The notes: generated by a model from the sequence alone, not told the origin. A stretch of 64,000 nucleotides of DNA from an uncultured Planctomycetia bacterium (GCA_964415355.1 CAYPYS010000006.1:752-64751); one strand, 5' to 3'. Positions 3,588-63,890 are shown, numbered from the stretch's first letter. Program-made: numbers and translations.

Positions 3588-3628
3588 CTTAAGTTTACAT
3601 TTCAACGTTGTTGAAATGTAAACTTAAG
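3588..3628. repeat. 41-bp palindromic element (19-bp stem, GTT loop), copy 1
   Basis: cttaagtttacatttcaacgttgttgaaatgtaaacttaag read directly; perfect inverted repeat. Confidence 0.95.
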
Positions 3629-3641
3629 AAGATGAATTACG

Positions 3642-9696: not shown

Positions 9697-10664
9697 TGGA
9701 TATATTAATATTAGGAGGCGCTGGGTTTTTAGGGAGTAATTTGGTCAGGAGGTGCCTAAAGGAGCCCGGGAATAGAGTAACTGTCGTGGACTCTTTGGAT
9801 CCCAGGCTAAAAAGCACGTCTGATAATTTGAGAGAAGTTTTACAGCAGATAGAATTTATCAAAGGTGACATGAGGGATTCTGTATTAATGGGAAGGATTG
9901 TAAAAGGCAAAGATGCTATTTTTAATTGCGCAGGCCAAACCTCCCATCCATTATCGTTGACAGATCCATTTTTTGATGTCGAGGTGAATTGCGCGGGCAA
10001 TCTCACGCTTTTAGAAGCCGTAAGGAAATACAATAAAGAAGTGCCCGTGGTCTATACATCAAGCAGTACTGTTATAGGAAAGACACAGGGAGAGGTTGTG
10101 GATGAGACGCATGGCGAATTTCCGCTGGATATCTATTCAGCCAATAAAGGCGTAGCAGAGAAATATTACCGTATTTATAACCGCGTTTATGATTTAAATA
10201 CGCTGTCGCTTCGCTTTGCCAATCTCTACGGCCCCTATGGGAAAGGTTATCCCGAATTTGGGTTTATAAATTATTTTATTGCGTTGGCAATGGCAGACAA
10301 GGATATAGAGATTTTTGGGGAGGGCAGTCAGAATCGAAATGTCATGTACGTCGAAGACGCTGTGGAGCTCATTTATAGATCTATATCGCATAAGGAGATC
10401 TTCGGCAATGTCTATTTTGCAGTGCACAGGGAACATTATTCTGTTTTGGATATCGCAAGGGAGATCGTCTCTGTCTTTAAGAAAGGGAATATTAGAAAAA
10501 TAGCATGGCCTGATGTACGCAAGAGAATAGAGATAGATAATGTAATAATTTCTGCGGAAAAGCTTTGTTATGATATGAAATTTGAACCGAGATATAATCT
10601 CAAAGAAGGGCTTCTTAAGACAAGAGAGATTTTAGAAAAAAATGCACTAATTGAATCTTCTTAA
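9696..10664 (+). CDS. NAD-dependent epimerase/dehydratase (extended SDR)
   Basis: ILILGGAGFLGSNL; YSANK; GTG start preceded by aaaggag RBS. Confidence 0.65.
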   Translation: MDILILGGAGFLGSNLVRRCLKEPGNRVTVVDSLDPRLKSTSDNLREVLQQIEFIKGDMRDSVLMGRIVKGKDAIFNCAGQTSHPLSLTDPFFDVEVNCAGNLTLLEAVRKYNKEVPVVYTSSSTVIGKTQGEVVDETHGEFPLDIYSANKGVAEKYYRIYNRVYDLNTLSLRFANLYGPYGKGYPEFGFINYFIALAMADKDIEIFGEGSQNRNVMYVEDAVELIYRSISHKEIFGNVYFAVHREHYSVLDIAREIVSVFKKGNIRKIAWPDVRKRIEIDNVIISAEKLCYDMKFEPRYNLKEGLLKTREILEKNALIESS

Positions 10665-10700
10665 GTTTACATTTCAACGTTGTTGAAATGTAAACTTAAG
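10660..10700. repeat. 41-bp palindromic element, copy 3
   Basis: perfect copy; its CTTAAG supplies the TAA stop of the upstream gene. Confidence 0.95.
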
Positions 10701-10727
10701 TCAGAAGCGTAACCAGGGAGGCATTTT

Positions 10728-13685: not shown

Positions 13686-14711
13686 ATGAAGATTCTTTAC
13701 GATAATACTATTTTTAATCTACAGAGATACGGCGGCATATCAAGGTATTTTACCGAGATCATAAGACGCATAGAGGAAGACAAAGATGTAGGCGTAAGCC
13801 TATTTAAAGGTATGGATATCTTGCCTTATAGATTTTTGAATCTCAATAATCCATTTCTAAATCACAAGCTATCTAATCCCAAATGCGATATATATCATCC
13901 TACTTATTATTCATCCATGGTTAAAAGGAGAAAAGGTGTTAAGACGATAGTTACAGTCTACGATATGATACATGAATTATATTTATCTAAGATAGATGAC
14001 CTTAATAAAGACCTGGAGGTCAAAAGAAAGTCTATTCATAATGCAGATCATATAATTTGCATTTCGGAAAAGACAAAGCAGGACCTCCAGGAGATATATA
14101 AGATAAAGGACGATAGCGTATCAGTAGTTTACTTTGGATCGTATGTAGATAGCTTGAAGCAGGAAGGGGAGGGATTCAGACAGCCAGACAAACCATATAT
14201 ATTCTATGTAGGAAAGAGGTCGCACTATAAGAATTTTAGAGTACTGGTTCAGGCTTTTAACTCGTTGGGACTAAAGAAAAAATTTGATCTTATTTGTTCT
14301 GGAGGAGGGCCTTTTTCAAAGCAAGAATTATCAGAGTTTAGAAGAATGAAATTAGAAGACTCGATAAAATATGTTGCAGGCCCAAATGAATTTCTATATC
14401 TATATTACAAAAACGCAGTTTTTTTAGTATACCCCTCGCTTTATGAAGGATTTGGACTGCCTATCCTTGAAGCAATGGGTAATGATTGTGCTGTTATTGC
14501 CGCTAACGCAGGGTCTATTCCCGAAGTTGCAGGTGATTCAGCATTGCTTTTTTCTCCTGAGGACGTGGACGAGCTGTGTCATTGCATGAAAACATTCTTA
14601 AACAATGATTCTGTTAGGAATGATTATATAAAGAGAGGGAAAGAAAGGGTCAAATTATTTTCTTGGGATAAAACAGCGAAGGATACTCTCGAGGTATACA
14701 AGAAGTCTTAA
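13686..14711 (+). CDS. glycosyltransferase GT4 (paralog A)
   Basis: C-terminal YPSLYEGFGLPILEAMGNDCAVIA motif; start chosen by alignment with paralog (MKILYDNT); alternative GTG at 13665. Confidence 0.55.
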   Translation: MKILYDNTIFNLQRYGGISRYFTEIIRRIEEDKDVGVSLFKGMDILPYRFLNLNNPFLNHKLSNPKCDIYHPTYYSSMVKRRKGVKTIVTVYDMIHELYLSKIDDLNKDLEVKRKSIHNADHIICISEKTKQDLQEIYKIKDDSVSVVYFGSYVDSLKQEGEGFRQPDKPYIFYVGKRSHYKNFRVLVQAFNSLGLKKKFDLICSGGGPFSKQELSEFRRMKLEDSIKYVAGPNEFLYLYYKNAVFLVYPSLYEGFGLPILEAMGNDCAVIAANAGSIPEVAGDSALLFSPEDVDELCHCMKTFLNNDSVRNDYIKRGKERVKLFSWDKTAKDTLEVYKKS

Positions 14712-14747
14712 GTTTACATTTCAACGTTGTTGAAATGTAAACTTAAG
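14707..14747. repeat. 41-bp palindromic element, copy 4
   Basis: perfect copy between the two GT4 paralogs; provides TAA stop of upstream gene. Confidence 0.95.
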
Positions 14748-14758
14748 CTGTGAGATAT

Positions 14759-20603: not shown

Positions 20604-20644
20604 CTTAAGTTTACATTTTAACGTTGTTGAAATGTAAACTTAAA
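20604..20644. repeat. 41-bp palindromic element, copy 7
   Basis: cttaagtttacattttaacgttgttgaaatgtaaacttaa. Confidence 0.9.
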
Positions 20645-20653
20645 AGGGGAGTT

Positions 20654-38426: not shown

Positions 38427-40258
38427 AATACGAAAATATAATCTGCATATCTTCTATTGACTGGGATTTTATATGGCAGCAGCACCAGTCTATCATGTCC
38501 AGACTCGCGAAAAATGGCAATAAAGTGCTGTTTATCGAGAACACAGGCGTTAGGACGCCTACAATAAAAGATATAGGTAGGATAAGACGGCGTATAATCA
38601 ACTGGTTTAGTAGCAGTAAAGGATTTAGGAAAGAGGCTGAAAACCTCTATGTGTATTCTCCGTTGATATTGCCGTTTCCTTATTTGAGAATCGCACGATT
38701 AGTAAATAGATTTTTATTACTCAGCCCTATAAAAAGATGGATGAAGGCGGTTGATTTCCATGACCCAATCATATGGACATTTTTACCTACCCCTATTACT
38801 TTGGATTTTACGGAAAACATATTTCACAAGGCCCTTGTCTATTACTGTACGGATAAGTTTTCAGCCACTTCAAGATCAGCTAAAAAGATAACCAGGTATG
38901 AGGAAGAAGTTATGAGAAAGGCTGATGCAGTATTTGTAATGGCGAGAGGGATGGTGGATTATTGTGCCAAATTTAACAAAGATGTTATGTGTATACCTAT
39001 GGGCATTGATGTGGGGAGATTTACCGATGATAAGAATGTTGCTGAACCTCTAGAGATAAAGGGAGTCAGTAGGCCTGTGATCGGCTTCATAGGAGGAGTG
39101 AGGAATTCCATAGACAAAGAGCTTGTTGTGTATCTTGCAAAGAGATTCAGCGGCTATACATTTGTTTTCGTGGGACCTATACAGACGGATATATCTAGGT
39201 TAAAGAGGATTGGAAATGTAATATTTACAGGCTCAAAGGATCACGAGGAGCTTAAAAGATATATAAAATTTTTTGACGTATGCATGATACCATACAAGAT
39301 AGACGATTATACGAATAATATTTCACCTGCCAAGCTAAACGAATATCTTATCATGGGAAAACCTGTGGTCTCTACTAGGCTTGGAGAGGTAGAGCGTTTC
39401 AATAGAGAGAATGGCAACATCTTGTTTGTAGGGGGTAATATAGAAGAGTTCGGAGATCTTATAATACAGGCTGTAGAAAAGGATAGTGATATTTTAAGGA
39501 AAAAGAGAAAAGAAGTTGCTTGTAATAATAGTTGGGACAAGAAGACAGAGAAGATGTCCGATATTATAATGACCGTGATTAAAAGAAAAGAAGAAGCGAT
39601 GGAATTAAATTGGAAGACAGGCCTTATGAGGCTATACCGAGAAGCCAGAGGCAAAACAGCAAAAGCTGTTGTTGCTATTGCAGCGTTATGGTTGATAATT
39701 TTTTATTCTCCTTTATTGTGGTTCATTGCTGAGCCTTTAAGGATTTCGCAGGTGCCGCAGAAAACAGACGCTATAGTTGTGTTTGGGGGCGGGGTCGGTG
39801 AGACCGGAAGCCCAGGCAAGAGCACCATAGAGAGAGCAAGATATGCCGTGAGTTTGTATAAAAAGGGGTATGCCGACACAATAATATTCTCATCGGGTTA
39901 TACCTATATATATAACGACGCCGAAAACATGAGGCTTTTTGCTGTCTCTATGGGCGTGCCCAAAAGAGATATTATATTAGAACAGAATGCGGATAGCGCT
40001 TATGAAAATGTAAGATTTTCCAAGGATATAATAAAAAGAAATGACTGGGATTCCATATTACTGGTCAGCTCGCCTTACAATATGCGTCGTGCTTCGCTTG
40101 TTTTTAATAAATGGGATCCTGATATAAAAGTTACCTATACTCCTGTGCCTGATAGCCAGTTTTATGATAAAAGCAAAGGTGTGAGGCTGGAACAGATACG
40201 AGCAATCGCTCACGAGTATTTGGGGATAATATATTATTTAATAAAAGGGCATATCTAA
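38420..40258 (+). CDS. GT4-like glycosyltransferase fused to C-terminal DUF218 (ElyC/YdcF/SanA-like) domain
   Basis: N-terminal 400 aa GT-B-like; C-terminus TDAIVVFGGGVGETGSPG...IIFSSGYTY...LLVSSPYNMRRA matches DUF218 signature. Confidence 0.5.
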   Translation: MLKYENIICISSIDWDFIWQQHQSIMSRLAKNGNKVLFIENTGVRTPTIKDIGRIRRRIINWFSSSKGFRKEAENLYVYSPLILPFPYLRIARLVNRFLLLSPIKRWMKAVDFHDPIIWTFLPTPITLDFTENIFHKALVYYCTDKFSATSRSAKKITRYEEEVMRKADAVFVMARGMVDYCAKFNKDVMCIPMGIDVGRFTDDKNVAEPLEIKGVSRPVIGFIGGVRNSIDKELVVYLAKRFSGYTFVFVGPIQTDISRLKRIGNVIFTGSKDHEELKRYIKFFDVCMIPYKIDDYTNNISPAKLNEYLIMGKPVVSTRLGEVERFNRENGNILFVGGNIEEFGDLIIQAVEKDSDILRKKRKEVACNNSWDKKTEKMSDIIMTVIKRKEEAMELNWKTGLMRLYREARGKTAKAVVAIAALWLIIFYSPLLWFIAEPLRISQVPQKTDAIVVFGGGVGETGSPGKSTIERARYAVSLYKKGYADTIIFSSGYTYIYNDAENMRLFAVSMGVPKRDIILEQNADSAYENVRFSKDIIKRNDWDSILLVSSPYNMRRASLVFNKWDPDIKVTYTPVPDSQFYDKSKGVRLEQIRAIAHEYLGIIYYLIKGHI

Positions 40259-40292
40259 GTTTACATTTTAACGTTGTTGAAATGTAAACTTG
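40255..40292. repeat. 41-bp palindromic element, copy 10 (slightly truncated)
   Basis: ctaagtttacattttaacgttgttgaaatgtaaacttg; provides TAA stop of upstream gene. Confidence 0.85.
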
Positions 40293-41173: not shown

Positions 41174-42139
41174 ATGGAATACGAGAGAGGCGGAAAACAA
41201 AAGGAATTTTACGATAAGGATGATGTTATATATAGATGCTGCCCTTTGTGCAACAGTAAGGATAATCGTAATATCTATACTGAAAGAGGACATATAGCTA
41301 TAGTTAGTTGCAAGAAATGTGGTCTTATTTATACAAACCCCACAGTAAGAAGTTCTGAGAAAAACTACTGGGGTGAAGAAAATAAATATTACGAAGAGGC
41401 TCGTTTGATATTTCATAACACGGGGAAACATCACAGGGATACTAATTATTTGGAAGATATAAGCATAATAGAGCGCTTAAAGTCAGTCGGGTATTTTCTG
41501 GATATAGGAACGAATATGGGCATGTTTTTAAGGCATACGCGTGCGAAAAAATGGATTGTTACAGGAATCGAACCTTCGCCGGCTTTGTCTGAAATGGCTC
41601 GTAAATACTTTGATTTAAATGTAAAGACATGTTATTTGAACGAAGCGGGTTTTAAAGACGAATCTTTTGATATAGTGACAATGACGGATGTTTTTGAGCA
41701 TATAGCAGAACCTAAAAAGATGTTGGTTGATATAAAAAGAGTTCTTAAGCACAATGGTATATTATTCATAAAAGTGCCGAATGGGAGATGTAATCTATTA
41801 AAATTATGGCTCGCTAAGATATTCGACAGGTTAAAAGATTATGATATTTTTGACTCTTATGAGCATCTTACACATTTTACCCATGATACATTAAAAAGGA
41901 TGCTAGAGGAATGTGGTTTTAAGATCAAGAAAATCTATATAGGAAAACCCATACAGTTACCTGTCTGGCATAAATATGTGGGGCATTATTATCAATATCC
42001 TAGTCCGTGGTTTTTAGATTGGAAGAATTATATATTGAGGCAGGTGTTTTACTGGATATCTAAGTTAGAGCGGTTGCTAAGGTTTGGTAATATAGGTTAT
42101 TTTGCACCTAATATCGTGATGATAGCTTCTAAAATATGA
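41174..42139 (+). CDS. class I SAM-dependent methyltransferase with zinc ribbon (paralog)
   Basis: CCPLCNS...CKKCGLIY; FLDIGTNMGMFL; IVTMTDVFEHI. Confidence 0.6.
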   Translation: MEYERGGKQKEFYDKDDVIYRCCPLCNSKDNRNIYTERGHIAIVSCKKCGLIYTNPTVRSSEKNYWGEENKYYEEARLIFHNTGKHHRDTNYLEDISIIERLKSVGYFLDIGTNMGMFLRHTRAKKWIVTGIEPSPALSEMARKYFDLNVKTCYLNEAGFKDESFDIVTMTDVFEHIAEPKKMLVDIKRVLKHNGILFIKVPNGRCNLLKLWLAKIFDRLKDYDIFDSYEHLTHFTHDTLKRMLEECGFKIKKIYIGKPIQLPVWHKYVGHYYQYPSPWFLDWKNYILRQVFYWISKLERLLRFGNIGYFAPNIVMIASKI

Positions 42140-43314
42140 AAATCCTTAGAATAATTACGAGGCTTAATATAGGCGGGCCGGCGAGGAATGCGGTGTTTCT
42201 TACAGAGGGAATACCTCGAACAATATTGGTTTGCGGGGAGGTCAGTGAAGATGAGGGGGATATGATGTATCTGGCAAGGGAGAAAGGGATCGAGCCGGTT
42301 ATTGTACCCGAACTTGGCAGAGAATTATCCATTGTCAATGACTGGAAAGCGTTTTGGAAAATATATAGAATTATTAGCAGGGAGAGGCCGAATGTTGTAC
42401 ATACTCATACGGCAAAGGCAGGTACGCTGGGAAGAGGAGCAGTAATTTTATATAGATTGCTTCGTCGCTTTGCTCCTCGCAATGACATGGTAGATTCCCG
42501 CTTTCGCGGGAATGACAGAACGGTTATTTTGGTACATACCTTCCATGGGCATGTGCTGCATAGTTATTTTGGAAAAATTAAAACATTTATTTTTATATGT
42601 ATAGAAAAGATCCTGGCTATATTCACTGATAGGATAATAGCAGTTAGTGAGTCTTTAAAAAAAGAGCTGGCAGGGAGATTCAGGATAGCTCCTGAAGAAA
42701 AATTTTCTGTTGTGGAGCTGGGGTTTGAATTAGAGAAATTATTGGCATTAGAACCAAGGCTTAAATCCGATCGCGTGAATATTGGTATCGTAGGGAGGTT
42801 GACAGCAGTGAAAAATCATAAGATGTTGTTTAAAGTAGCCTCAAGGCTTAAGGCTCAAGGCTTAAGGCCTGGAATTATTGTTATCGGAGACGGAGAATTA
42901 AGAGGCGAGTTAGAAGTATACGCGAGGGAGTTAGGTATAGGAGATACAGTGAAATTCCGGGGATGGGTCAAGGATGTCACAGAGATATACAGAGAGCTGG
43001 ATATCGTGGCATTGACGTCTCTGAACGAAGGCACACCTGTCTCTATAATAGAGGCCATGGCCGCAGCAAGGCCTGTTGTCGTTGCCAGGGTTGGCGGGGT
43101 TAGTGATATCGTTCAAAATAGAAAGACAGGATATCTGGTTGATGCTGGCAATGAGGAAGGTTTTACGGAAAAATTAACGGATTTAATCAAAAACAAAGAG
43201 AGGCGCGTAGAATTTGGAAGATATGGTAGAGAATCGGTAAAAGATAGATTTTCAAAAGATAGGTTGATAGAAGATATGAAAAAAGTGTATGGATTCCCGC
43301 TTTTGCGGGAATGA
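42136..43314 (+). CDS. glycosyltransferase GT4 carrying an in-frame 25-bp repeat insertion
   Basis: HTHTAKAG...VHTFHGH GT4 N-domain interrupted by DSRFRGND encoded by the GATTCCCGC repeat; C-terminus LLRE also repeat-encoded. Confidence 0.65.
   Translation: MKILRIITRLNIGGPARNAVFLTEGIPRTILVCGEVSEDEGDMMYLAREKGIEPVIVPELGRELSIVNDWKAFWKIYRIISRERPNVVHTHTAKAGTLGRGAVILYRLLRRFAPRNDMVDSRFRGNDRTVILVHTFHGHVLHSYFGKIKTFIFICIEKILAIFTDRIIAVSESLKKELAGRFRIAPEEKFSVVELGFELEKLLALEPRLKSDRVNIGIVGRLTAVKNHKMLFKVASRLKAQGLRPGIIVIGDGELRGELEVYARELGIGDTVKFRGWVKDVTEIYRELDIVALTSLNEGTPVSIIEAMAAARPVVVARVGGVSDIVQNRKTGYLVDAGNEEGFTEKLTDLIKNKERRVEFGRYGRESVKDRFSKDRLIEDMKKVYGFPLLRE
42493..42517. repeat. 25-bp palindromic element GATTCCCGCTTTCGCGGGAATGACA (REP2), copy inside the CDS
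   Basis: read directly; translates in frame as DSRFRGND. Confidence 0.9.
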
Positions 43315-43337
43315 CGATTATGAGAGTGGGAATGACA
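43292..43337. repeat. REP2 copy plus partial second copy
   Basis: gattcccgcttttgcgggaatgacg ... gggaatgaca. Confidence 0.85.
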
Positions 43338-43441
43338 GTAAAAGAAAATAGATACTCCTGTGTCTATATATAAGAGAGGGGGTGAATTAAAGAGGTTGAT
43401 TTTTAAAGTCAGATGGCAGTATAATGCACAGGAGGAGAGCT

Positions 43442-43858
43442 ATGAAAAAAGATACTGGGAAAAAGACAATGCTAAAAGAAATCAAAGGCTATATTGATTC
43501 ATCATTAAAAGAAATCAAAGGATATGTTGATTTATCATTAAAGGAAGTCAAGGGATATGTCGATTCATCATTAAAGGAAGTCAAAGAAGAATTACAAGAG
43601 ACCAAGAGATATACGGGAGTTTTGGTCGAAGGTCTGCGGTCAGAGGTCAAGCTGGTGTTTGAGCAATATGGTACTGTTATAAGAAAGCTCGAGGATCATG
43701 ACAGAAGGTTTGATGAGATTGATAGAAGGTTTGAGAATATAGATGTTAGATTTAACTGCGTTGATCTTGAGCTTAAAGGTATGAAGACGGCATTGTTTGA
43801 CAATAGCCATAGGCTTAATGACCATGAGGGCAGGATCAGGAACTTGGAAATGAATTAA
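43442..43858 (+). CDS. hypothetical coiled-coil protein with 3x tandem 10-aa repeat (SLKEIKGYVD)
   Basis: aggagga RBS then ATG; 30-nt tandem repeats at about 43490-43580; no recognisable family. Confidence 0.4.
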   Translation: MKKDTGKKTMLKEIKGYIDSSLKEIKGYVDLSLKEVKGYVDSSLKEVKEELQETKRYTGVLVEGLRSEVKLVFEQYGTVIRKLEDHDRRFDEIDRRFENIDVRFNCVDLELKGMKTALFDNSHRLNDHEGRIRNLEMN

Positions 43859-43860
43859 TG

Positions 43861-43885
43861 GATTCCCGCTTTCGCGGGAATGACA
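43861..43885. repeat. REP2 copy
   Basis: gattcccgctttcgcgggaatgaca. Confidence 0.9.
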
Positions 43886-43896
43886 AAGGGGTCATC

Positions 43897-44859
43897 GTGA
43901 GGGTATTAATTACAGGCGGGGCAGGGTTTATTGGGTCGCACCTGGCAGATGAGCTGATAAAGGCCGGGAATGAAGTTGTGGTGCTTGATAATCTCTCAAC
44001 AGGCAGCTTTGAAAACATCGAGCACCTGACCGGGAACAAAATGTTCAAGTTTGTAGAAGGCACTATTTTAAATGAGTCCCTTGTGGACAAACTGGTCGGA
44101 CAGTGCGATGCAGTATACCACCTGGCAGCGGCAGTAGGCGTGGACCTGATAGTGAAAAAGCCGCTCGAGTCGCTCGTCACGAATATAAAAGGGAGCGAGA
44201 TAGTGCTTGAGATGGTGCATCGCTATCATAAAAAAATCCTTATAACGTCTACGTCTGAGATATATGGCAAGAACGCGAACGGTCCTTTAAAAGAAGAAGA
44301 TGACAGGATCCTTGGTTCGCCTTTGAAGTCCAGGTGGGGATATTCTACTGCAAAGGCAGTGGACGAGATGCTCGCGTATATATACTGGAGAGAAAAAAAA
44401 GTGCCGAGCGTGATAGTGCGGCTTTTCAATACTGTGGGTCCAAGGCAAACCGGCGCTTACGGCATGGTAATCCCAAGATTCATAAGCCAGGCGCTCAAAG
44501 GTGAAGACATAACAGTATATGGCAGCGGAAAACAATCTAGATGTTTCTTGCATGTTAAAGATGTAGTTATTACGCTTATAAAATTGATGAATAGCCATGA
44601 TGCCGTGGGAAAGGTTTTTAATATAGGCAGCCAGGAAGAGATAACCATAGAGGGCCTTGCGAAAAAGGTAATCGACATTACAAAAAGCAGGTCAAGATTG
44701 GTTTACGTGCCTTATGACAAGGCCTATGAAGAAGGTTTTGAAGATATGCAGCGCAGGGTCCCTGATACCAGCAAGGCAAGAGATGCGGTAGGTTTTAAGC
44801 CTACAGTGGATCTCAATGGAATTATTAAGAACGTAGTCGAATATTATAAAAATAGATGA
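43897..44859 (+). CDS. NAD-dependent UDP-sugar epimerase/decarboxylase (extended SDR, UXS/GalE-like)
   Basis: VLITGGAGFIGSHL...VVLDNLSTG; YSTAK; GTG at 43897 after aaagggg RBS. The upstream ATG at 43858 would make the N-terminus repeat-encoded (MDSRFRGND). Confidence 0.7.
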   Translation: MRVLITGGAGFIGSHLADELIKAGNEVVVLDNLSTGSFENIEHLTGNKMFKFVEGTILNESLVDKLVGQCDAVYHLAAAVGVDLIVKKPLESLVTNIKGSEIVLEMVHRYHKKILITSTSEIYGKNANGPLKEEDDRILGSPLKSRWGYSTAKAVDEMLAYIYWREKKVPSVIVRLFNTVGPRQTGAYGMVIPRFISQALKGEDITVYGSGKQSRCFLHVKDVVITLIKLMNSHDAVGKVFNIGSQEEITIEGLAKKVIDITKSRSRLVYVPYDKAYEEGFEDMQRRVPDTSKARDAVGFKPTVDLNGIIKNVVEYYKNR

Positions 44860-46637
44860 TATTGAAAAGCTACCTCATACCGTTTTTTCTGTCATTCGCG
44901 ATTTCAATCCTGCTCACCCCTTTTATAAAAAAAATAGCTGTTATTAAAGGCTATGTGGCACACCCTAACGGAGACCGCTGGCACAAGAAAGAGACCGCGC
45001 TTTTTGGCGGCATAGCTATTTTTATCTCGTTTATTATTCCTTATGTTATTTTTGTAAAACCTGACATCGAGGCCATTGGTATTCTTTTATGCGGAACTAT
45101 TATTTTTGCCTTAGGTGTTTTTGACGATATAAAGCGCATAAAGCCATACACGAAGCTAATAGGGCAGATCGTCATAGCGTCTTTACTGGTCAGTTTTGGC
45201 GTGAGCATAAAAATCATTCCTTACAGGATAGTGAGCATGCCGCTTACGATACTATGGATGGTGGCGATCGTAAATTCCTTTAATCTACTCGATAATATGG
45301 ACGGGCTTTCAACCGGCATTGCGGCGATCGTGACCGGTATCCTGTTTCTGTGTGCGGTTTTTAACGGAAATATTTTATTGGCATCAACGGCATTGATACT
45401 GGCAGGGAGCCTTTTAGGTTTTCTCAGGTATAATTTTAATCCCGCGAAGATCTTTATGGGAGATTGCGGCAGCATGTTTATAGGCTTTATGCTGGGCGCG
45501 ATAACTCTGCAGGGCAGCTGGAAAGAATCAACGCATTTGGTGATGATATTAGCTATCCCTGTTTTGGTATTGGCCGTGCCTATATTTGATACGACATTTG
45601 TAACGCTTGCGAGAGGGATAAGCGCGCGCAAGATCTTTCAGGGAGGCAAGGATCATATATCTCACAGGATGGTGGTTCTTGGGCTCTCAGAGAAGAATAC
45701 GGTGCTTGTGTTGTATTTCATAGGTTTATTTTTCGGAGGCATAAGCGTGCTTTCGATGTTTGTCGCGCCGATAATAACGCTAATGCTTGTCCTGGTTGCG
45801 GCTGTGAGCCTTATATATTTCGCGACATTTTTAGGCAAGGTCAAGGTCTATAGCGACGACAAGGCAAAGACATTGAAGAAGAAAAACGGCAACGTGGTGC
45901 TGGGCGGCGCGTTGATGCATAAAAGAAGGATGTTGGAAGTAGCCATTGACTTTATATTGATATGCGTGGCGTATGTCTCAGCGTATCTTTTGAGATTCGA
46001 AGGCGTATTGTCTCATACAAATCAGGAGCTTATCGTAAGGTCTCTTCCTGTTATATTGATAATAAAATACATCGTGTTCTTTAAGTTCGGGCTTTACAGG
46101 GGTATATGGAGATACGTGAGCGTGCCTGACCTTATAGACATATTTAAGGCAGTATTGACGGCATCTTTGTTTTCGGCAGTGGCTGTGCTTTTTATGTGGA
46201 GGTTTCATGGTTTTTCAAGGGCAGTGTTTATTATTGACTGGCTTTTACTTTTTATGCTGATTTCAGGCGCAAGAATACTTGAGAGGATCTACAAGGAGAT
46301 ATTTGACCAGGTAAGATTGGGCGATAAAAAGGTCTTGATATACGGGGCTGGCGATGCAGGAGAAATCGTTTTAAGAGAGATAAGGAACAATAAGGCATTG
46401 GGTTATAAGCCGGTCGGGTTCCTGGATGACGACGAAGAGAAATTAGGGAGGCGCATACATAACGTATCGGTCTTAGGCTCAAAGACTGACATGGCGCGTT
46501 TGATAAAACAGAAAGAAGTGGGGGAGATCATAATAGCAATACCAGACCTTCCAAAAGATATCTTTGAAGACACTGTGAGTATCTGCAGAAGCTTAGACGT
46601 AAGCTGCAAAAAGATGCACGACATCCTGCCAAAATAA
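44856..46637 (+). CDS. WecA/MraY-family polyprenyl-phosphate HexNAc-1-phosphate transferase fused to PglF/WbaP-type N-terminal (4 TM + CoA_binding_3-like) module
   Basis: NSFNLLDNMDGLSTG and other PNPT motifs in residues 1-330; C-terminal 260 aa with 4 TM and IYGAGDAGEIVLREI...PVGFLDDDEEKLG...VLG. Confidence 0.7.
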   Translation: MILKSYLIPFFLSFAISILLTPFIKKIAVIKGYVAHPNGDRWHKKETALFGGIAIFISFIIPYVIFVKPDIEAIGILLCGTIIFALGVFDDIKRIKPYTKLIGQIVIASLLVSFGVSIKIIPYRIVSMPLTILWMVAIVNSFNLLDNMDGLSTGIAAIVTGILFLCAVFNGNILLASTALILAGSLLGFLRYNFNPAKIFMGDCGSMFIGFMLGAITLQGSWKESTHLVMILAIPVLVLAVPIFDTTFVTLARGISARKIFQGGKDHISHRMVVLGLSEKNTVLVLYFIGLFFGGISVLSMFVAPIITLMLVLVAAVSLIYFATFLGKVKVYSDDKAKTLKKKNGNVVLGGALMHKRRMLEVAIDFILICVAYVSAYLLRFEGVLSHTNQELIVRSLPVILIIKYIVFFKFGLYRGIWRYVSVPDLIDIFKAVLTASLFSAVAVLFMWRFHGFSRAVFIIDWLLLFMLISGARILERIYKEIFDQVRLGDKKVLIYGAGDAGEIVLREIRNNKALGYKPVGFLDDDEEKLGRRIHNVSVLGSKTDMARLIKQKEVGEIIIAIPDLPKDIFEDTVSICRSLDVSCKKMHDILPK

Positions 46638-47701
46638 TGAAAATAGGGATAGATATTCGTCCGACACTCAAGAAGACAACAGGCATAGGCAAGTATACCC
46701 TTCATCTGATCAATGCCCTTGCAGAAGTAGATCCCGAAAATAGATATTTTCTCTACAGCAGAAAAAAGATATTGGATTTTAAAAGGCGGTTGCCAAGGTT
46801 GCCCGGCGCTAATTTTTCGCATCGCGTGGATCATTTTAAAAAAGGCGTGAGTGCAGCGATGCCGGAGATAGATATTTTCCACACCTCTTCTTATGACCTG
46901 GATAGGCCGAAAAAGGCAAAATATATCGTCACTGTCCATGATGTAATTATAAAGGCATATCCGCACGGCCATAGCGAGAAGACTATAAGAGAAACAGATG
47001 AAAAATTAAAAAAGATTTTAGGCGAGGCAGATGTGTTGGTGGCGGATTCCCATAGCACCAAAGCGGATCTGATGAGGTTTTATGATGTGGCCGAGTCAAG
47101 GGTAGCGGTAATCTATCCCGGAGTTAATTTTACGGAATACGGAATACGGGATGCGGAATGCGAAGACTATATTCTCTTTGTCGGGACGCTTGAGCCGCGA
47201 AAGAATGTAGATGGAGTCATAAAGGCGTATAGCTGGCTGAGAAAAAACTCAGGCGTGAGGCATAAGCTTTATATAGCGGGCATGAAGGGATGGATGTACG
47301 AAAATATTTTTAAGGAATACGAGAAGAGCGAATTTAAAAAAGATATTATCTTTAAAGGTTATGTAAGCGAACGAGAACTGAGCGCGTTGTACCAGAATGC
47401 GTCTTTATTCGTGTATCCGTCCTTTTATGAAGGTTTCGGGTTTCCTGTGATAGAGGCGTTTAGCTATGGAGTACCTGTTGTTACTTCGAAGACTTCTTCT
47501 TGCGGAGAGGTAGCAGGCGATAACGCATTATTGGTAGACCCTTCTAATATAAAGGAGATTAGAGAAGCAATGGCAAGACTCATTGCCGATAAAAACTTAA
47601 GGGAGCAGCTGGCGAGGCGCGGCCGAGAGAGAGCGAAGCAATTCACCTGGCGCAACACCGCCTCCGCCTTAAGTATACATTTCAACAACGTTAAAGTGTA
47701 A
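46637..47701 (+). CDS. glycosyltransferase GT4
   Basis: YPSFYEGFGFPVIEAFSYGVPVV; last 10 codons lie inside a 41-bp element. Confidence 0.7.
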   Translation: MKIGIDIRPTLKKTTGIGKYTLHLINALAEVDPENRYFLYSRKKILDFKRRLPRLPGANFSHRVDHFKKGVSAAMPEIDIFHTSSYDLDRPKKAKYIVTVHDVIIKAYPHGHSEKTIRETDEKLKKILGEADVLVADSHSTKADLMRFYDVAESRVAVIYPGVNFTEYGIRDAECEDYILFVGTLEPRKNVDGVIKAYSWLRKNSGVRHKLYIAGMKGWMYENIFKEYEKSEFKKDIIFKGYVSERELSALYQNASLFVYPSFYEGFGFPVIEAFSYGVPVVTSKTSSCGEVAGDNALLVDPSNIKEIREAMARLIADKNLREQLARRGRERAKQFTWRNTASALSIHFNNVKV

Positions 47702-47707
47702 AGTTAG
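47668..47707. repeat. 41-bp palindromic element, copy 11 (subfamily 2, tatac/ctaac variant)
   Basis: cttaagtatacatttcaacaacgttaaagtgtaaagttag. Confidence 0.85.
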
Positions 47708-47709
47708 GG

Positions 47710-47734
47710 GATTCCCGCTTTCGCGGGAATGACA
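47710..47734. repeat. REP2 copy
   Basis: gattcccgctttcgcgggaatgaca. Confidence 0.9.
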
Positions 47735-48342: not shown

Positions 48343-48359
48343 ATAAGAAACCGAATATA

Positions 48360-48560
48360 TATTATATTGTTTAAGGGAAGCTGGTGTGAGTCCAGCGCAG
48401 CCCCGCTGCTGTAATAGGGTACGAAATCTGCAAAAAGTCATTGTCCTGGAGATTTAGGACGAGAAGGCGCAGAGATTAGAGCGATCCTTAAGTCAGAAGA
48501 CCTTGCAATGTGATCTTTAAAAAGCTACGCAGGGTAGCTTTGAGGGCCAAGTAAATCAGG
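48360..48560 (+). promoter_or_regulatory. cobalamin (AdoCbl) riboswitch
   Basis: GGGAAGCTGGTGTGAGTCCAGCGCAGCCCCGCTGCTGTAATAGGG core and AGTCATTGTCCTGGAGA B12-box-like segment; upstream of btuF. Confidence 0.7.
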
Positions 48561-48606: not shown

Positions 48607-49452
48607 ATGAGAAGATTTTTTATTATTAAATTTTTAATAATGTTTTTTCTAGCTTTTAGCAGCTATTCCTTTTCTTCGGAAGGCAAAAGGTTGAGGGTAG
48701 TCTCGCTTGCGCCGTCTACTACTGAGATATTGTTCGCGCTGAGGCTGGATGAGGAGATCGTAGGTGTAAGTTCATTCTGTAATTATCCCTTAAAAGCTCA
48801 GGAAAAAGATAAGATAGGGACTTTTAGCCACCCAAACATTGAAAAGATCCTGTCTCTAAAACCAGATATTGTGTTTTGTACAGGGCTTGAGCAGGCGCCT
48901 GTGATCAGTAAGTTAAAACAATTAAATCTGGAGGTCTTTGTCAGTGATCCGCAGAACATAGAAGAACTTTTTGATTCGATCAGGGATATGGCCGTGCTTA
49001 CAAGTCGCAGCAAAGAAGGCAAAGAGTTGATTAATAAAATGAAAAAAGGTGTAGAAGAAATAAGGTCAAAAACAGAGTCTATTCCAAAAGAAGACAGGGC
49101 GAGCGTTTTTATAGAATTTTGGAATGATCCCTTGATGAGTGCGGGTGATAATTCTTTTATCGGCGAATTGATCGCATTGGCTGGAGGCATAAATATTGCC
49201 CATGACGTTAAGAGACCTTATAGTTATTTTAGCCCCGAAGAAGTAATAAAGCGCAATCCCGATCGCATCATTCTGGCTTATATGGTCAATGAAGACGCGG
49301 CAAAGACAATAAGAAAACGCCTGGGCTGGAAAGATATATCAGCGGTTAAAAATAATCGCGTATATAGCGATGTTGATCCTGATATGCTTTTGAGGCCTGG
49401 ACCGCGTTTAGTAGAAGCCCTAGGGGAGTTATATAAAAGGCTATACCCGTAG
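48607..49452 (+). CDS. btuF: periplasmic cobalamin-binding protein of ABC transporter (BtuF/TroA-like)
   Basis: signal peptide; RVVSLAPSTTEILFAL...IVGVSSFCNYP. Confidence 0.75.
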   Translation: MRRFFIIKFLIMFFLAFSSYSFSSEGKRLRVVSLAPSTTEILFALRLDEEIVGVSSFCNYPLKAQEKDKIGTFSHPNIEKILSLKPDIVFCTGLEQAPVISKLKQLNLEVFVSDPQNIEELFDSIRDMAVLTSRSKEGKELINKMKKGVEEIRSKTESIPKEDRASVFIEFWNDPLMSAGDNSFIGELIALAGGINIAHDVKRPYSYFSPEEVIKRNPDRIILAYMVNEDAAKTIRKRLGWKDISAVKNNRVYSDVDPDMLLRPGPRLVEALGELYKRLYP

Positions 49453-49476
49453 ATTCCCGCTTTCGCGGGAATGACA
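49452..49476. repeat. REP2 copy
   Basis: gattcccgctttcgcgggaatgaca. Confidence 0.9.
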
Positions 49477-57670: not shown

Positions 57671-57695
57671 GATTCCCGCTTGCGCGGGAATGACA
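57671..57695. repeat. REP2 copy (one substitution)
   Basis: gattcccgcttgcgcgggaatgaca. Confidence 0.85.
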
Positions 57696-59850: not shown

Positions 59851-59889
59851 CTAACTTTACACTTTAACGTTGTTGAAATGTAAACTTAG
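59851..59889. repeat. 41-bp palindromic element, copy 17 (subfamily 2, GTT loop; flanked by cccc/gggg and T-run)
   Basis: ctaactttacactttaacgttgttgaaatgtaaacttag. Confidence 0.85.
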
Positions 59890-59899
59890 GGGTTTTGTT

Positions 59900-62202: not shown

Positions 62203-63852
62203 ATGGATAGAGACGCATTATATTTTCATATTTCAAATCTTATCCTGGTTCTTCTAGCGCTGGTAAGCATAGGACCTGTTTTAAATCCTTTTATCGCAAT
62301 GATTCTGATTCCCGGCACTATCGTTGGTTTTATTGTAAGCTGGCAGATAAAGGAACGCAGGCCGCAGCAGATAGATACATTTATCGGGATGCTTTCTCTC
62401 GCCGCCATTATCATTATCTTTGGACGGTTATACGATACAGCTATCGTAGTCGATAATCTCCTGAAGATTTTTTCTTTGGCCTTAGCATGGCTTACATTTT
62501 TTCAAAGCTTCGGCCTTAAAACCGGCAAAAGCTATGCGATGATGCAATTTATATCAGTAAGTTTATTACTGTCGTCTGTTGGCCTGGCCCTCGAGCAAGA
62601 GGCGTTTTACATGGTGCTCCTTACCGTTTTTCTCTTTGTGTTTATTTTTACTATGCGGTTGAATTTGGTGTGCGATAAAAAACGCAAGGGTTCTCATATC
62701 ATAGGTTATCAGCGCGAGATAATGAGCCTGCCTCAGCAGATAAAAACAGTTTCTCTTATGTTTTCGTTTATCTTGATAGTCGCTTCTTTTGTGTATCCGC
62801 TTGTCCCTAGATTTGAAAATATTTCTTTCAGACAGATACCGTCTTCTCTCGTAGGATTTCCTGAGCAGGTGCCTTTGCTCAAGATGTTTGTTAGTGCGCC
62901 GAAAACCGTAGAGGATGACAAAAAGGCCAAAGAAGCGCAATTTGTTGATGACCAGAGCAGGATAAGAGAAATAAATGACAAGAAAACAAGGGATGGCGAT
63001 AACCAAAAAGATTCCGAAGGCAAAGTCGATGGTTCTATTATTACTAGATTCCCGTCAGAGGGCTTTGATGAGAGCATAGATATATTTCAGATAGAATCCC
63101 TTACTATAGATTCAGATAAAGAAGAGGTGGCAGCCGGAGGGCAATGCAATCTCAGCGCAGAAATAAAACTGATAGACGGCTCAGTTATTCCAGTGACCGA
63201 GATCGTTGACTGGAAGGTGACCGGTTCTAAAAAGGTTTCTGTGGATAGAGGTATTCTGGTCCCAAAGGAAAAAGGCCGCATAAGCATTTCAGCCTCATAT
63301 CTGGGTAGTTTTAGCAATGATGTAGACATAAAAGTAACAGAGGCCCTGGGGGCGCAGAGAAAAATAGATTGGATGCGTAGAACGTGGACGATTTTAGCAT
63401 GGTTGATTATATTTGCCTTGCTTGGCTTGTTTTTCTGGGCTTTTATAAGGAGCAGCAGATTAAGAGAGCTGGCGATCAAGGATCCGCGGGAGTTCATAAA
63501 AGAGATATATGTCACGCTGTGCAGGGGATTTAAGATCTATGGCATCCCCAGGCTGGATTGCTTTGCCCATAGAGAATTTTTTGAATTTTCTAAAAAACTT
63601 GTATATTCAAAGCCAGAGCCGTTGTGTATTATGACTGAGAATGTGCTGGAGGCGCGTTTTTCCGCTCATGATATTTCCGCAGAGCATTCGAAGAAAATAT
63701 TGGGATTATTCCATGATGTCAGGAGGATAGTTCTTGGCAGGCCCGGATTTAAAGAGAGCGGGAAGAAATTCTTATTCACCTTGCTCATGTTGGATGTCCT
63801 GATGCTGGGGCAATTTATTGCATGTCATTCCCGTGCAAACGGGAATCCATAA
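62203..63852 (+). CDS. membrane protein with bacterial Ig-like (Big_2) domain, MoxR-operon partner
   Basis: N-terminal TM helices; Big_2-like segment (IDGSVIPVTEIVDWKVTGSKKVSVD); last 10 codons lie in an inverted REP2 copy. Confidence 0.35.
   Translation: MDRDALYFHISNLILVLLALVSIGPVLNPFIAMILIPGTIVGFIVSWQIKERRPQQIDTFIGMLSLAAIIIIFGRLYDTAIVVDNLLKIFSLALAWLTFFQSFGLKTGKSYAMMQFISVSLLLSSVGLALEQEAFYMVLLTVFLFVFIFTMRLNLVCDKKRKGSHIIGYQREIMSLPQQIKTVSLMFSFILIVASFVYPLVPRFENISFRQIPSSLVGFPEQVPLLKMFVSAPKTVEDDKKAKEAQFVDDQSRIREINDKKTRDGDNQKDSEGKVDGSIITRFPSEGFDESIDIFQIESLTIDSDKEEVAAGGQCNLSAEIKLIDGSVIPVTEIVDWKVTGSKKVSVDRGILVPKEKGRISISASYLGSFSNDVDIKVTEALGAQRKIDWMRRTWTILAWLIIFALLGLFFWAFIRSSRLRELAIKDPREFIKEIYVTLCRGFKIYGIPRLDCFAHREFFEFSKKLVYSKPEPLCIMTENVLEARFSAHDISAEHSKKILGLFHDVRRIVLGRPGFKESGKKFLFTLLMLDVLMLGQFIACHSRANGNP
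63823..63847. repeat. REP2 copy, inverted orientation, variant
   Basis: tgtcattcccgtgcaaacgggaatc. Confidence 0.8.
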
Positions 63853-63865
63853 ATACCGTTATATA

Positions 63866-63890
63866 GATTCCCGCTTTCGCGGGAATGACA
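63866..63890. repeat. REP2 copy
   Basis: gattcccgctttcgcgggaatgaca. Confidence 0.9.

Follow-up and report, generated by a model that had tools for sequence, protein, structure and literature searches.

The window analyzed here is a 64,000-nucleotide (64-kb) stretch of DNA deposited under the name of an uncultured Planctomycetia bacterium (GCA_964415355.1, CAYPYS010000006.1:752-64751). It carries a gene for a family 4 glycosyltransferase (GT4) of the GT-B fold, followed by a small open reading frame (ORF) and a gene for an extended short-chain dehydrogenase/reductase (SDR), a NAD-dependent sugar epimerase/dehydratase (Table 1). The best protein matches of the GT4 are GT4 proteins of Candidatus Omnitrophota (50%–76% identity), and the window comes from a Candidatus Omnitrophota genome. 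A short hairpin repeat, which we call repeat A, occurs in frame inside the GT4 gene, again at its 3′ end, and once more in front of the SDR gene. The arrangement very probably reflects a tolerated, in-frame, composite insertion of units of the repetitive extragenic palindromic (REP) type at a permissive loop in a still functional GT4, with a second copy serving as the C-terminus and a third lying between genes before the SDR.

Repeat units in and around the GT4 gene

Both strands of the window were searched with the 24-nt motif GATTCCCGCTTTCGCGGGAATGAC at up to three mismatches, which returned eight copies of repeat A, compared with none in 100 dinucleotide-preserving shuffles; the matches start at 42493, 43292, 43861, 47710, 49452, 57671, and 63866 on the + strand and at 63824 on the − strand. 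In repeat A, a stem of 8 bp (ATTCCCGC/GCGGGAAT) closes a loop of 4 nt, and this hairpin folds as single-stranded DNA (ssDNA) at −9 kcal/mol (z = −5.3 versus shuffles). An earlier reading made from the sequence alone (hereafter the sequence-only reading) had described a 25-bp repeat; the repeat is real, but its core measures 24 nt, or 28 nt including the conserved flanks. Read on the − strand, the copies have the form (T/C)GTCATTCCCGCGAAAGCGGGAATC(C/T)A. Three published motifs resemble it: the consensus ATTCCC-N8-GGGAAT of dRS3 (duplicated repeat sequence 3 of Neisseria), the consensus CGTCATTCCCGCGMAVGCGGGAATCYRG of the NTS (Neisseria transformation sequence), and the pattern HGTCWYN(0-2)YYVSBRHN(0-5)WNVSBRGN(0-2)RNCYNB of the SRM (Ssn-related motif), the target of the Ssn family of GIY-YIG single-strand nucleases (PMC11893778). 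The dRS3 consensus is matched by all eight copies, the SRM pattern by seven (∼0.08 expected from mononucleotide shuffles), among them the intragenic copy (42490-42517, − strand), and the 24-nt NTS core GTCATTCCCGCG-MAV-GCGGGAATC by six; none of the eight matches the full 28-nt NTS, since no copy retains its 5′ C together with its 3′ YRG. The NTS-sense strand is the − strand in 7/8 copies. All copies lie within the last 22 kb of the window (42–64 kb; GC 0.40–0.46); the first 42 kb (GC 0.34–0.41) hold an extended series of glycosyltransferase and methyltransferase genes, with an AT-rich palindrome described below as the only one of the two repeats present. Copies other than those in the GT4 gene and before the SDR gene sit at gene boundaries, no more than a few nucleotides from a stop or start codon, in a very compact single-strand gene arrangement. 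A role as intrinsic terminator was ruled out, as no T run follows any copy, and repeat A matched no Rfam family when the entire window was scanned, the sole match being a cobalamin riboswitch.

The GT4 ORF matches PF13439 (Glyco_transf_4; E = 1.6e-14) and PF00534 (Glycos_transf_1; E = 5e-36), and the repeat A copy at 42493-42516 is read in frame within it as D120-S-R-F-R-G-N-D127, as the sequence-only reading had claimed. The same reading had put the interruption at about 20 residues, and this holds as well: the segment between the HTHTAKAG and HTFHGH motifs is 37 aa long in the window GT4, compared with 15–16 aa in the shortest orthologs (e.g., TLGRLAGILYGKAVLI) and up to 47 aa elsewhere, so that the window GT4 has ∼21 extra residues. 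Only part of the insert comes from repeat A, however. The residues preceding it, LLRRFAPRND, are encoded by a unit of a second family (unit B), which had been overlooked, and the peptides that run across the insert are FAPRNDMVDSR and FRGNDRTVILVHTFHGH. The loop DNA reads TAT AGA, then unit B (TTG CTT CGT CGC TTT GCT CCT CGC AAT GAC), then unit A (ATG GTA GAT TCC CGC TTT CGC GGG AAT GAC), then AGA ACG GTT. Both units terminate in AATGAC, and both start with GTCATT on the opposite strand. The intragenic unit A is identical to other copies in the window over 24/24 nt, and to the copy at 49449-49475 over 27/27 nt. Unit B is present once in the window and does not fold alone (z ∼ 0); in P0022, P0044, P0100, and other orthologs it is paired with its reverse complement (peptide CHCEAAGRSNL), which makes it one arm of a larger palindromic element. 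A reading of 42457-42486 as a decayed copy of repeat A was rejected, given that the ortholog DNA identifies a different family with a single copy in the window.

Codon alignment with close relatives (proteins are numbered P and loci L) resolves the insert into its parts. At the same codon as the window insert, P0012 (L082) has unit B alone (LLRRFAPRND), P0004 (L081) has unit A alone (IM + DSRFRGND), and P0008 (L209) has an empty site (TAT AGA CGT AAA TTA GTG CAT), while the closest relative, P0002 (L084; 76% identity), has an unrelated 27-nt Cys/Lys-rich filler at the loop.

The copy at 43292-43315, at the 3′ end of the same gene, also escaped the sequence-only reading. It is read in another frame than the loop copy and encodes GFPLLRE plus the TGA stop (43312-43314), so that the GT4 ends in VYGFPLLRE; a truncated half copy of repeat A (GATTATGAGAGTGGGAATGAC) follows. 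Orthologous hairpins are found at the GT4 3′ end in L081, L084, L209, and L211, and the arrays in L209 and L211 consist of full followed by half copies at the same place as the array in the window. Two half copies (GGGAATGACAG…) trail the full copy in P0008 and P0030, and in P0004 and P0002 the stem takes variant forms (CCTGC…GCAG). Depending on the genome, the GT4 stop codon falls before, within, or after the hairpin. Because the 3′-end hairpin is common to related genomes, the array must be old in the clade. The intragenic copy, GTAGATTCCCGCTTTCGCGGGAATGACAGA, differs from the 3′-flank copy of P0008 at 1/30 positions, and a local origin of the intragenic unit A is possible. Searches with the insert DNA in the short contigs L082, L206, and L207 found no further copies.

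The third copy precedes the SDR gene. As the sequence-only reading stated, a long ORF (43858..44859) opens ATG GAT TCC CGC, i.e., with the repeat-derived peptide MDSRFRGND. The alternative start that it named, the GTG at 43897, lies 13 codons downstream and, on comparison with orthologous proteins, is most likely the true one. Among 120 SDR orthologs (81%–88% identity), 115 start M[KR][VA]LITGGAGFIG and 107 are 318–322 aa long; the five longer orthologs have other repeat-like peptides upstream. Read from GTG 43897, the window SDR begins MRVLITGGAGFIG and has 320 aa, with the TGGAGFIG Rossmann motif near its start; the PF01370 (Epimerase) match (E = 1e-56) begins at residue 16 of the long ORF, and a predicted ribosome-binding site, AAAGGGG, is found 6 nt 5′ of the GTG. 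In L082, the SDR begins ATGAAGGTTTTAATTACAGGC right at the GT4 stop. The N-termini and lengths of the orthologs mark the MDSRFRGND N-terminus as an annotation artifact of first-ATG calling, and at least one public gene call (P0125, 333 aa) contains the same mistake. The small ORF between the two genes contains three to four 33-nt tandem repeats (KEIKGYIDSSL), has no Pfam match, and resembles a coiled coil. Its place is taken by other small, unannotated ORFs in L205 (11480-11776), L207 (11299-11571), and L084 (1408-1692), and none is present in L082.

Table 1. Coordinates of the genes, repeat units, and indel blocks discussed in the text (window positions unless stated otherwise)
Feature	Position	Strand	Remarks
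GT4 (GT-B fold) glycosyltransferase gene, 392 aa	42136..43314	+	Pfam, AlphaFold2, Foldseek, EX7E
Unit B, TTGCTTCGTCGCTTTGCTCCTCGCAATGAC	42457..42486	+	Encodes L108-D117, LLRRFAPRND; one arm of a GTCATTGCGAG...GCAATC type element
Unit A in GT4	42487..42517 (core hairpin 42493-42516)	−	Encodes M118-D127, MV + DSRFRGND
Repeat A, GT4 3′ end	43289..43316 (core 43292-43315)	−	Codons G386-E392 + stop
Truncated half copy of repeat A	43316..43336	−	GGGAATGAC match at 43328
Small ORF, 144 aa	43424..43858	+	Between GT4 and SDR; TAA stop abuts next repeat A copy
Repeat A, intergenic	43858..43885 (core start 43861)	−	Source of the apparently spurious ATG/MDSRFRGND reading
Extended SDR, NAD-dependent sugar epimerase/dehydratase gene, 320 aa	43897..44859	+	Most likely start GTG 43897
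Repeat A, intergenic	47707..47734	−	Between second GT4 gene (stop 47701) and corrinoid adenosyltransferase gene
Repeat A	49449..49476	−	Entire spacer from stop of periplasmic-binding-protein gene (ends 49452) to ATG of FecCD permease gene (49476)
Repeat A, intergenic	57671..57694	−	5′ of groES; loop variant TTGC on + strand
Repeat A pair, opposite orientation	63823-63850 and 63863-63890	+ and −	First copy ends ORF 62203..63852
GT4 indel block 1	After residue 27		Insert 0-32 aa; connection H14-25/E29-34
GT4 indel block 2	Residues 108-128		Insert 0-31 aa; connection H94-112/E131-136
GT4 indel block 3	Around residue 240		Two adjacent blocks, 0-17 and 0-21 aa; connection H228-240/E246-251
Repeat matches in L205	10085-10144, 10379-10447, 10799-10873, 15330-15369, 18938-18998, 19565-19619 (L205 positions)		

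Recurrent insertion at the loops of an intact enzyme

An alignment of 120 GT4 orthologs contains, besides variable termini, three internal indel blocks only, one of which holds the window insert. The inserted peptides belong to recognizable repeat families: DSRFRGND; LLR(R)FA(P)RND together with CHCEAAGRSNL; LTLSPKGRG; SWLMAHG; KPRRMPSAT; FSTQPNILRACREDIRPRSNN; EIASAPISSGSRND; and GLNLPYR/GFQTRPYR. The same families recur at other sites or termini in other orthologs. Comparable inserts are carried by dozens of full-length orthologs that are 50%–76% identical to the window GT4. Loop states are scattered over a neighbor-joining tree computed from the GT4 core columns: A, B, A+B, empty sites, and unrelated fillers all occur in the small clade to which the window GT4 belongs, and B is found in a distant clade too. 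In L205 (GCA_030649895.1), another repeat family, multicopy there, occupies GT4 sites 1 and 3 (27–51 nt matches; only 14 nt at site 2), and this family (peptides SSSEVEK/KYSSSGHE) also matches inside two neighboring glycosyltransferase genes, a second GT4 gene and a Glyco_transf_9 gene. Two families served as controls. In the window's second GT4 family (46637..47701), a separate hot spot follows residue 172, with inserts of at least 6 residues in 52/114 orthologs, many of them recognizable repeat peptides. The SDR family from the same genomes shows no hot spot and no internal indel block. In-frame repeat insertions seem to be common in Omnitrophota envelope-sugar genes. In GT4 homologs of other phyla, the native loop measures 16, 21–23, or 28 aa and lacks repeat peptides, which indicates that the site is naturally tolerant of length; in Omnitrophota, the loop is a sink for hairpin repeats.

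Residues 236-245 of the window GT4 (42841-42870; SRLKAQGLRP), at the third of these hot spots, are encoded by AAGGCT-rich DNA (AAGGCTTAAGGCTCAAGGCTTAAGGCC) whose folding is not significant (z = −1.0). Peptides of the RLKAQG/RVKGEG kind occur at the same and other sites in orthologs, and this patch may be a third repeat-derived stretch in the gene.

An AlphaFold2 model of the GT4, computed from 117 family sequences (mean pLDDT 92.2, pTM 0.90), together with the alignment to GT4 homologs that the sequence-only reading had proposed, places the insert on the fold. The sole internal stretch of the model with low confidence, residues 111-130 (pLDDT 62–68), connects helix 94-112 to strand 131-136. 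Foldseek ranks the model among the GT-B GT4 enzymes BshA, MshA, PglA, and HepE (probability 1.0; 16%–21% identity). All three indel blocks are helix-to-strand connections on the model, and the NIGGPA, HTHTAKAG, and HTFHGH motifs, after strands 1, 4, and 5, respectively, are at strand-to-helix junctions. Rossmann-type domains bind their ligands at strand-to-helix junctions. By model topology, the insert falls at the other end of helix 4, within the helix 4–strand 5 connection of the N-terminal Rossmann domain; from this alpha-to-beta position and what is generally known of Rossmann and GT-B folds, the loop is predicted to point away from the catalytic cleft.

Further observations speak for a functional gene. 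The EX7E motif (E298, E306) and the HTHTAKAG and HTFHGH motifs are intact. Counting positions at least 90% conserved in the other 119 GT4 orthologs (n = 141), the window GT4 retains 137 (97.2%; family median 97.9%). Its comparison with P0002 gives dN = 0.131 and dS = 0.911, a ratio of ∼0.14. An identical protein (P0121) has been recorded from NCBI, JGI, and ENA on at least six contigs, the longest of 113,839 nt. The insert is present in every one of the five proteins in its cluster (90% identity), with no insertion-free variant among them. The conserved residues, the dN/dS ratio, and the repeated records make both pseudogenization and assembly error unlikely.

We envisage the following course of events. 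Two 30-nt units, B of a related, GTCATT-headed family and A of the dRS3/NTS hairpin type, came to lie in tandem and in frame in the helix 4–strand 5 connection, adding ∼21 residues. The tandem may stem from a further insertion event or, equally well, from recombination of a B with an A allele at the AATGAC that they share. Tolerance would rest on unit lengths divisible by three, on a stop-free frame, and on a loop at the end of the sheet remote from the cleft, which would explain why the GT4 is still under purifying selection; the insert peptide itself presumably has no function. The 3′-end copy was absorbed into the ORF in the only frame that contains a TGA, replacing the native C-terminal tail and supplying the stop.

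Competing explanations

Several observations weigh against a merely tolerated insertion of a dRS3/NTS-type repeat into an active enzyme. The orientation of the loop away from the cleft is read from topology, and GT4 activity is deduced from sequence conservation. Insertion has recurred at one codon (after TAT AGA), which may mean targeting beyond tolerance. For the exact 24-mer, intragenic location is the exception: in random metagenome contigs, ∼1/137 copies lies clearly within a real coding sequence (L157), most long ORFs that run across the 24-mer in GC-rich contigs being spurious wrong-frame ORFs, and L157 alone looking coding on both sides. The tag of the repeat is CGTC in one window copy (43292) and TGTC in the other seven. 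Finally, no GIY-YIG gene of the ssn type (cd10448) was found in the window (regular-expression and tblastn searches) or in the fetched Omnitrophota loci (tblastn), which leaves any link to Ssn nucleases indirect in the present genome; spread of the repeat here would depend on an Ssn-like protein encoded elsewhere.

One alternative is that the insert is kept for a nucleic-acid role. The − strand hairpin A could be an Ssn-type target, or it could signal recombination or processing where the variable part of the polysaccharide gene cluster meets the conserved part; the peptide would then be a by-product. SsnA, a 94-aa single-domain GIY-YIG protein, cuts ssDNA beside NTS, on one strand only, and restricts integration of transforming DNA in Neisseria, where dRS3 repeats lie near variable genes (PMC11893778). 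The uniform strand of 7/8 copies, their confinement to 42–64 kb, and the repeated hits at the same codon position would fit such a role. So would the position of the GT4 at the head of a conserved gene block (GT4, SDR, PF00953 transferase, GT4), shared by L205, L206, L207, L209, and L210, the genes upstream of the block varying between loci. We nevertheless consider it unlikely: the window has no ssn gene, close relatives have an empty site (P0008, P0064) or unrelated fillers, unit B has no folding of its own, and the second GT4 family behaves alike at a different kind of site, so that structural tolerance fits better than a specific signal. Taken on its own, too, the recurrence at GT4 loops points only with low probability to targeting or a DNA-level function beyond tolerance. 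A more elaborate version, which we hold to be slightly less probable again, would make the helix 4–strand 5 loop and the two further loops a targeted landing site. Ssn-related hairpins and other REP families would repeatedly enter, replace one another, and be lost at a single codon through a mechanism acting on ssDNA, the hairpin marking a recombination boundary between the variable and conserved halves of the Omnitrophota envelope-polysaccharide locus. Were this true, a coding loop would be part of a gene-exchange control system.

The sequence-only reading had left the choice between a tolerated loop insertion and early pseudogenization, in which the loop and C-terminal insertions would be inactivating the GT4 and the open frame would be transient. 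Two repeat-derived changes in one gene, the loop insert and the replaced tail, and the low model confidence of the inserted residues are what such decay might look like. The retained conserved positions and the low dN/dS argue strongly in the other direction, as do the intact motifs, the recovery of the same allele on at least six contigs, the dozens of full-length orthologs with inserts, and the age of the 3′ hairpin, and we regard pseudogenization as very improbable. The tolerated insertion is the half of that choice that stands, on the DNA identity to dispersed copies, the short orthologs, the low-pLDDT connection, and the conservation.

It is scarcely conceivable that the 37 residues form a native loop, passed on vertically, whose likeness to the repeat is due to chance or convergence. 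The site is naturally variable in length in other phyla, and the sequence-only reading had pointed to an equally long native loop in repeat-free homologs as evidence against an insertion; an acidobacterial native loop does attain 28 aa, but none reaches 37 aa. The idea is refuted by the identity to dispersed copies at the DNA level, with orthologs at 66%–76% identity that carry A only, B only, or neither, and the same peptides at other sites and termini of other orthologs, on the same side. Equally implausible is a repeat collapsed or mis-joined into the gene during assembly, since, although short repeats do cause mis-assemblies (the 7306-nt contig L208, a perfect inverted self-duplication with genes mirrored around 3650, is an obvious palindromic artifact and was not used), the identical protein comes from three databases and six contigs, four further near-identical cluster members carry the insert, and the frame and both flanks are colinear with orthologs.

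Other elements of the window and comparison with known systems

Beyond the GT4 gene, ORF 62203..63852 (549 aa; weak TgpA_N match) takes its last codons and TAA stop from the repeat A copy at 63823-63850 and is a further case of a repeat-derived C-terminus; the copy in opposite orientation follows 16 nt after the terminating copy. A second, larger repeat family in the window consists of at least 17 copies of an AT-rich, near-perfect ∼41-nt palindrome, CTTAAGTTTACATTTCAACGTTGTTGAAATGTAAACTTAAG, distributed over 3585-62203 (e.g., 3589-3629, 10661-10701, 14708-14748, 20605-20645, 40255-40292, 47669-47709, and 59851-59891). Each copy fills a short spacer between co-oriented genes, none is intragenic, and there is no Rfam match; two copies (47665, 49479) adjoin copies of repeat A. 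The cobalamin riboswitch (RF00174; 88.7 bits; 48350-48524, + strand) is located 3′ of the corrinoid adenosyltransferase gene and 5′ of the periplasmic-binding-protein and FecCD permease genes.

By its sequence, repeat A is assigned to the CGTC/HGTC-tagged REPs and equated with the Neisseria dRS3/NTS repeat and the SRM. In Neisseria gonorrhoeae, copies 100% identical over 26 nt occur at 40 or more places; near-identical copies are also found in Legionella, Azospirillum, and sphingomonads; and at least 120 metagenome contigs, ranging in GC content from 0.30 to 0.72, contain the exact 24-mer. In two of these contigs, L087 (1043-1451) and L102 (218-580), two inverted copies ∼340 nt apart enclose a gene for a 94–96 aa GIY-YIG protein (PF01541; E ∼ 8e-16), which is the published NTS-ssnA-NTS arrangement, and in L143 (15-485) and L117 (2-109) a GIY-YIG gene lies beside a copy; these four contigs are probably not from Omnitrophota. 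Genes of the ssn type are typically SRM-flanked in many phyla (PMC11893778; Nat Commun 2025).

The window copies resemble Neisseria dRS3/NTS in the ATTCCC-N8-GGGAAT pattern and in a core, GTCATTCCCGCG-AAA-GCGGGAATC, that falls inside the NTS consensus. dRS3 has been classified as "CGTC-1" of the CGTC-tagged REP superfamily, whose members have a stem of 8–9 bp, a loop of 4–5 nt, and a short tail, with no dedicated transposase and no RAYT (REP-associated tyrosine transposase) known (PMC3733652, Di Nocera et al., 2013); the stem and loop of repeat A conform to this. Like these repeats, the window copies lie mainly at gene ends and include one opposite-orientation pair. They differ from NTS in lacking the 3′ YRG, in their mostly TGTC tag, and in the absence of ssn from the window, and they differ from the published cases in the host phylum, Omnitrophota being named in neither PMC11893778 nor PMC3733652. 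Moreover, one window copy is inside a coding sequence and two form C-terminal tails, a kind of case that the Neisseria work omits.

With the GTAG REPs and REPINs, repeat A shares a short, GC-rich hairpin, a conserved tetranucleotide head, a preference for gene ends, and an occasional intragenic location, sometimes with the supply of a stop. It is unlike the RAYT-associated REPs and REPINs in its head, (C/T)GTC rather than GTAG, and in its associated gene, which in other contigs encodes a GIY-YIG nuclease. Mobilization of the RAYT/IS200 type was dropped as an explanation, given the non-GTAG head, the absence of a Y1 transposase among the scanned window ORFs, and the absence of any reported for CGTC REPs (PMC3733652). 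REPs of both superfamilies, CGTC and GTAG, have been found within genes, more than half of such inserts being dimers that encode 20–30 aa, and N-terminal cases are often mis-annotated starts (PMC3733652); this description closely fits the present case. The GT4 itself resembles BshA, MshA, PglA, and HepE in its two Rossmann-like domains, EX7E motif, and PF13439 and PF00534 domains, and is unlike them in bearing a repeat-derived loop and tail.

What is already known, then, is the kind of event, seen in intragenic CGTC/GTAG REPs and in the Rickettsia palindromic elements (RPEs), as well as the repeat family; what is new is the host phylum, the identity to Neisseria copies over up to 26 nt, and the repeated occupation of three particular loops by many families of repeats. 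The analysis establishes no previously unknown mechanism. It does correct two recurring annotation traps in Omnitrophota, i.e., spurious SDR N-termini of the MDSRFRGND type and a GT4 C-terminus and stop that come from a repeat, and it finds the dRS3/NTS hairpin, recently tied to Ssn nucleases, unchanged in a candidate phylum remote from Neisseria. The ortholog inserts also map, in a natural way, where GT-B enzymes tolerate insertions.

The closest precedent in behavior is that of the RPEs, two of which, RPE-4 and RPE-6, are CGTC REPs (PMC3733652) and which provide the precedent for palindromic repeats within genes (PMC3733652; PMC10969869). As in Rickettsia, palindromic repeats lie in frame in protein-coding genes and the host protein is retained, the likeness being one of behavior only; RPEs occur in housekeeping genes without destroying them, often as dimers of 20–30 aa, and are thought to be located in loops. 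The present repeats differ from the classical RPE-1 type, which is ∼150 bp long, in their 30-nt units, and they differ from RPEs generally in that many different families of repeats have entered the same loop of a single enzyme family, time and again, throughout a phylum. REP-type repeats thus lie regularly inside genes, at a few permissive loops, in compact genomes, which extends the RPE phenomenon to a free-living or epibiotic phylum.

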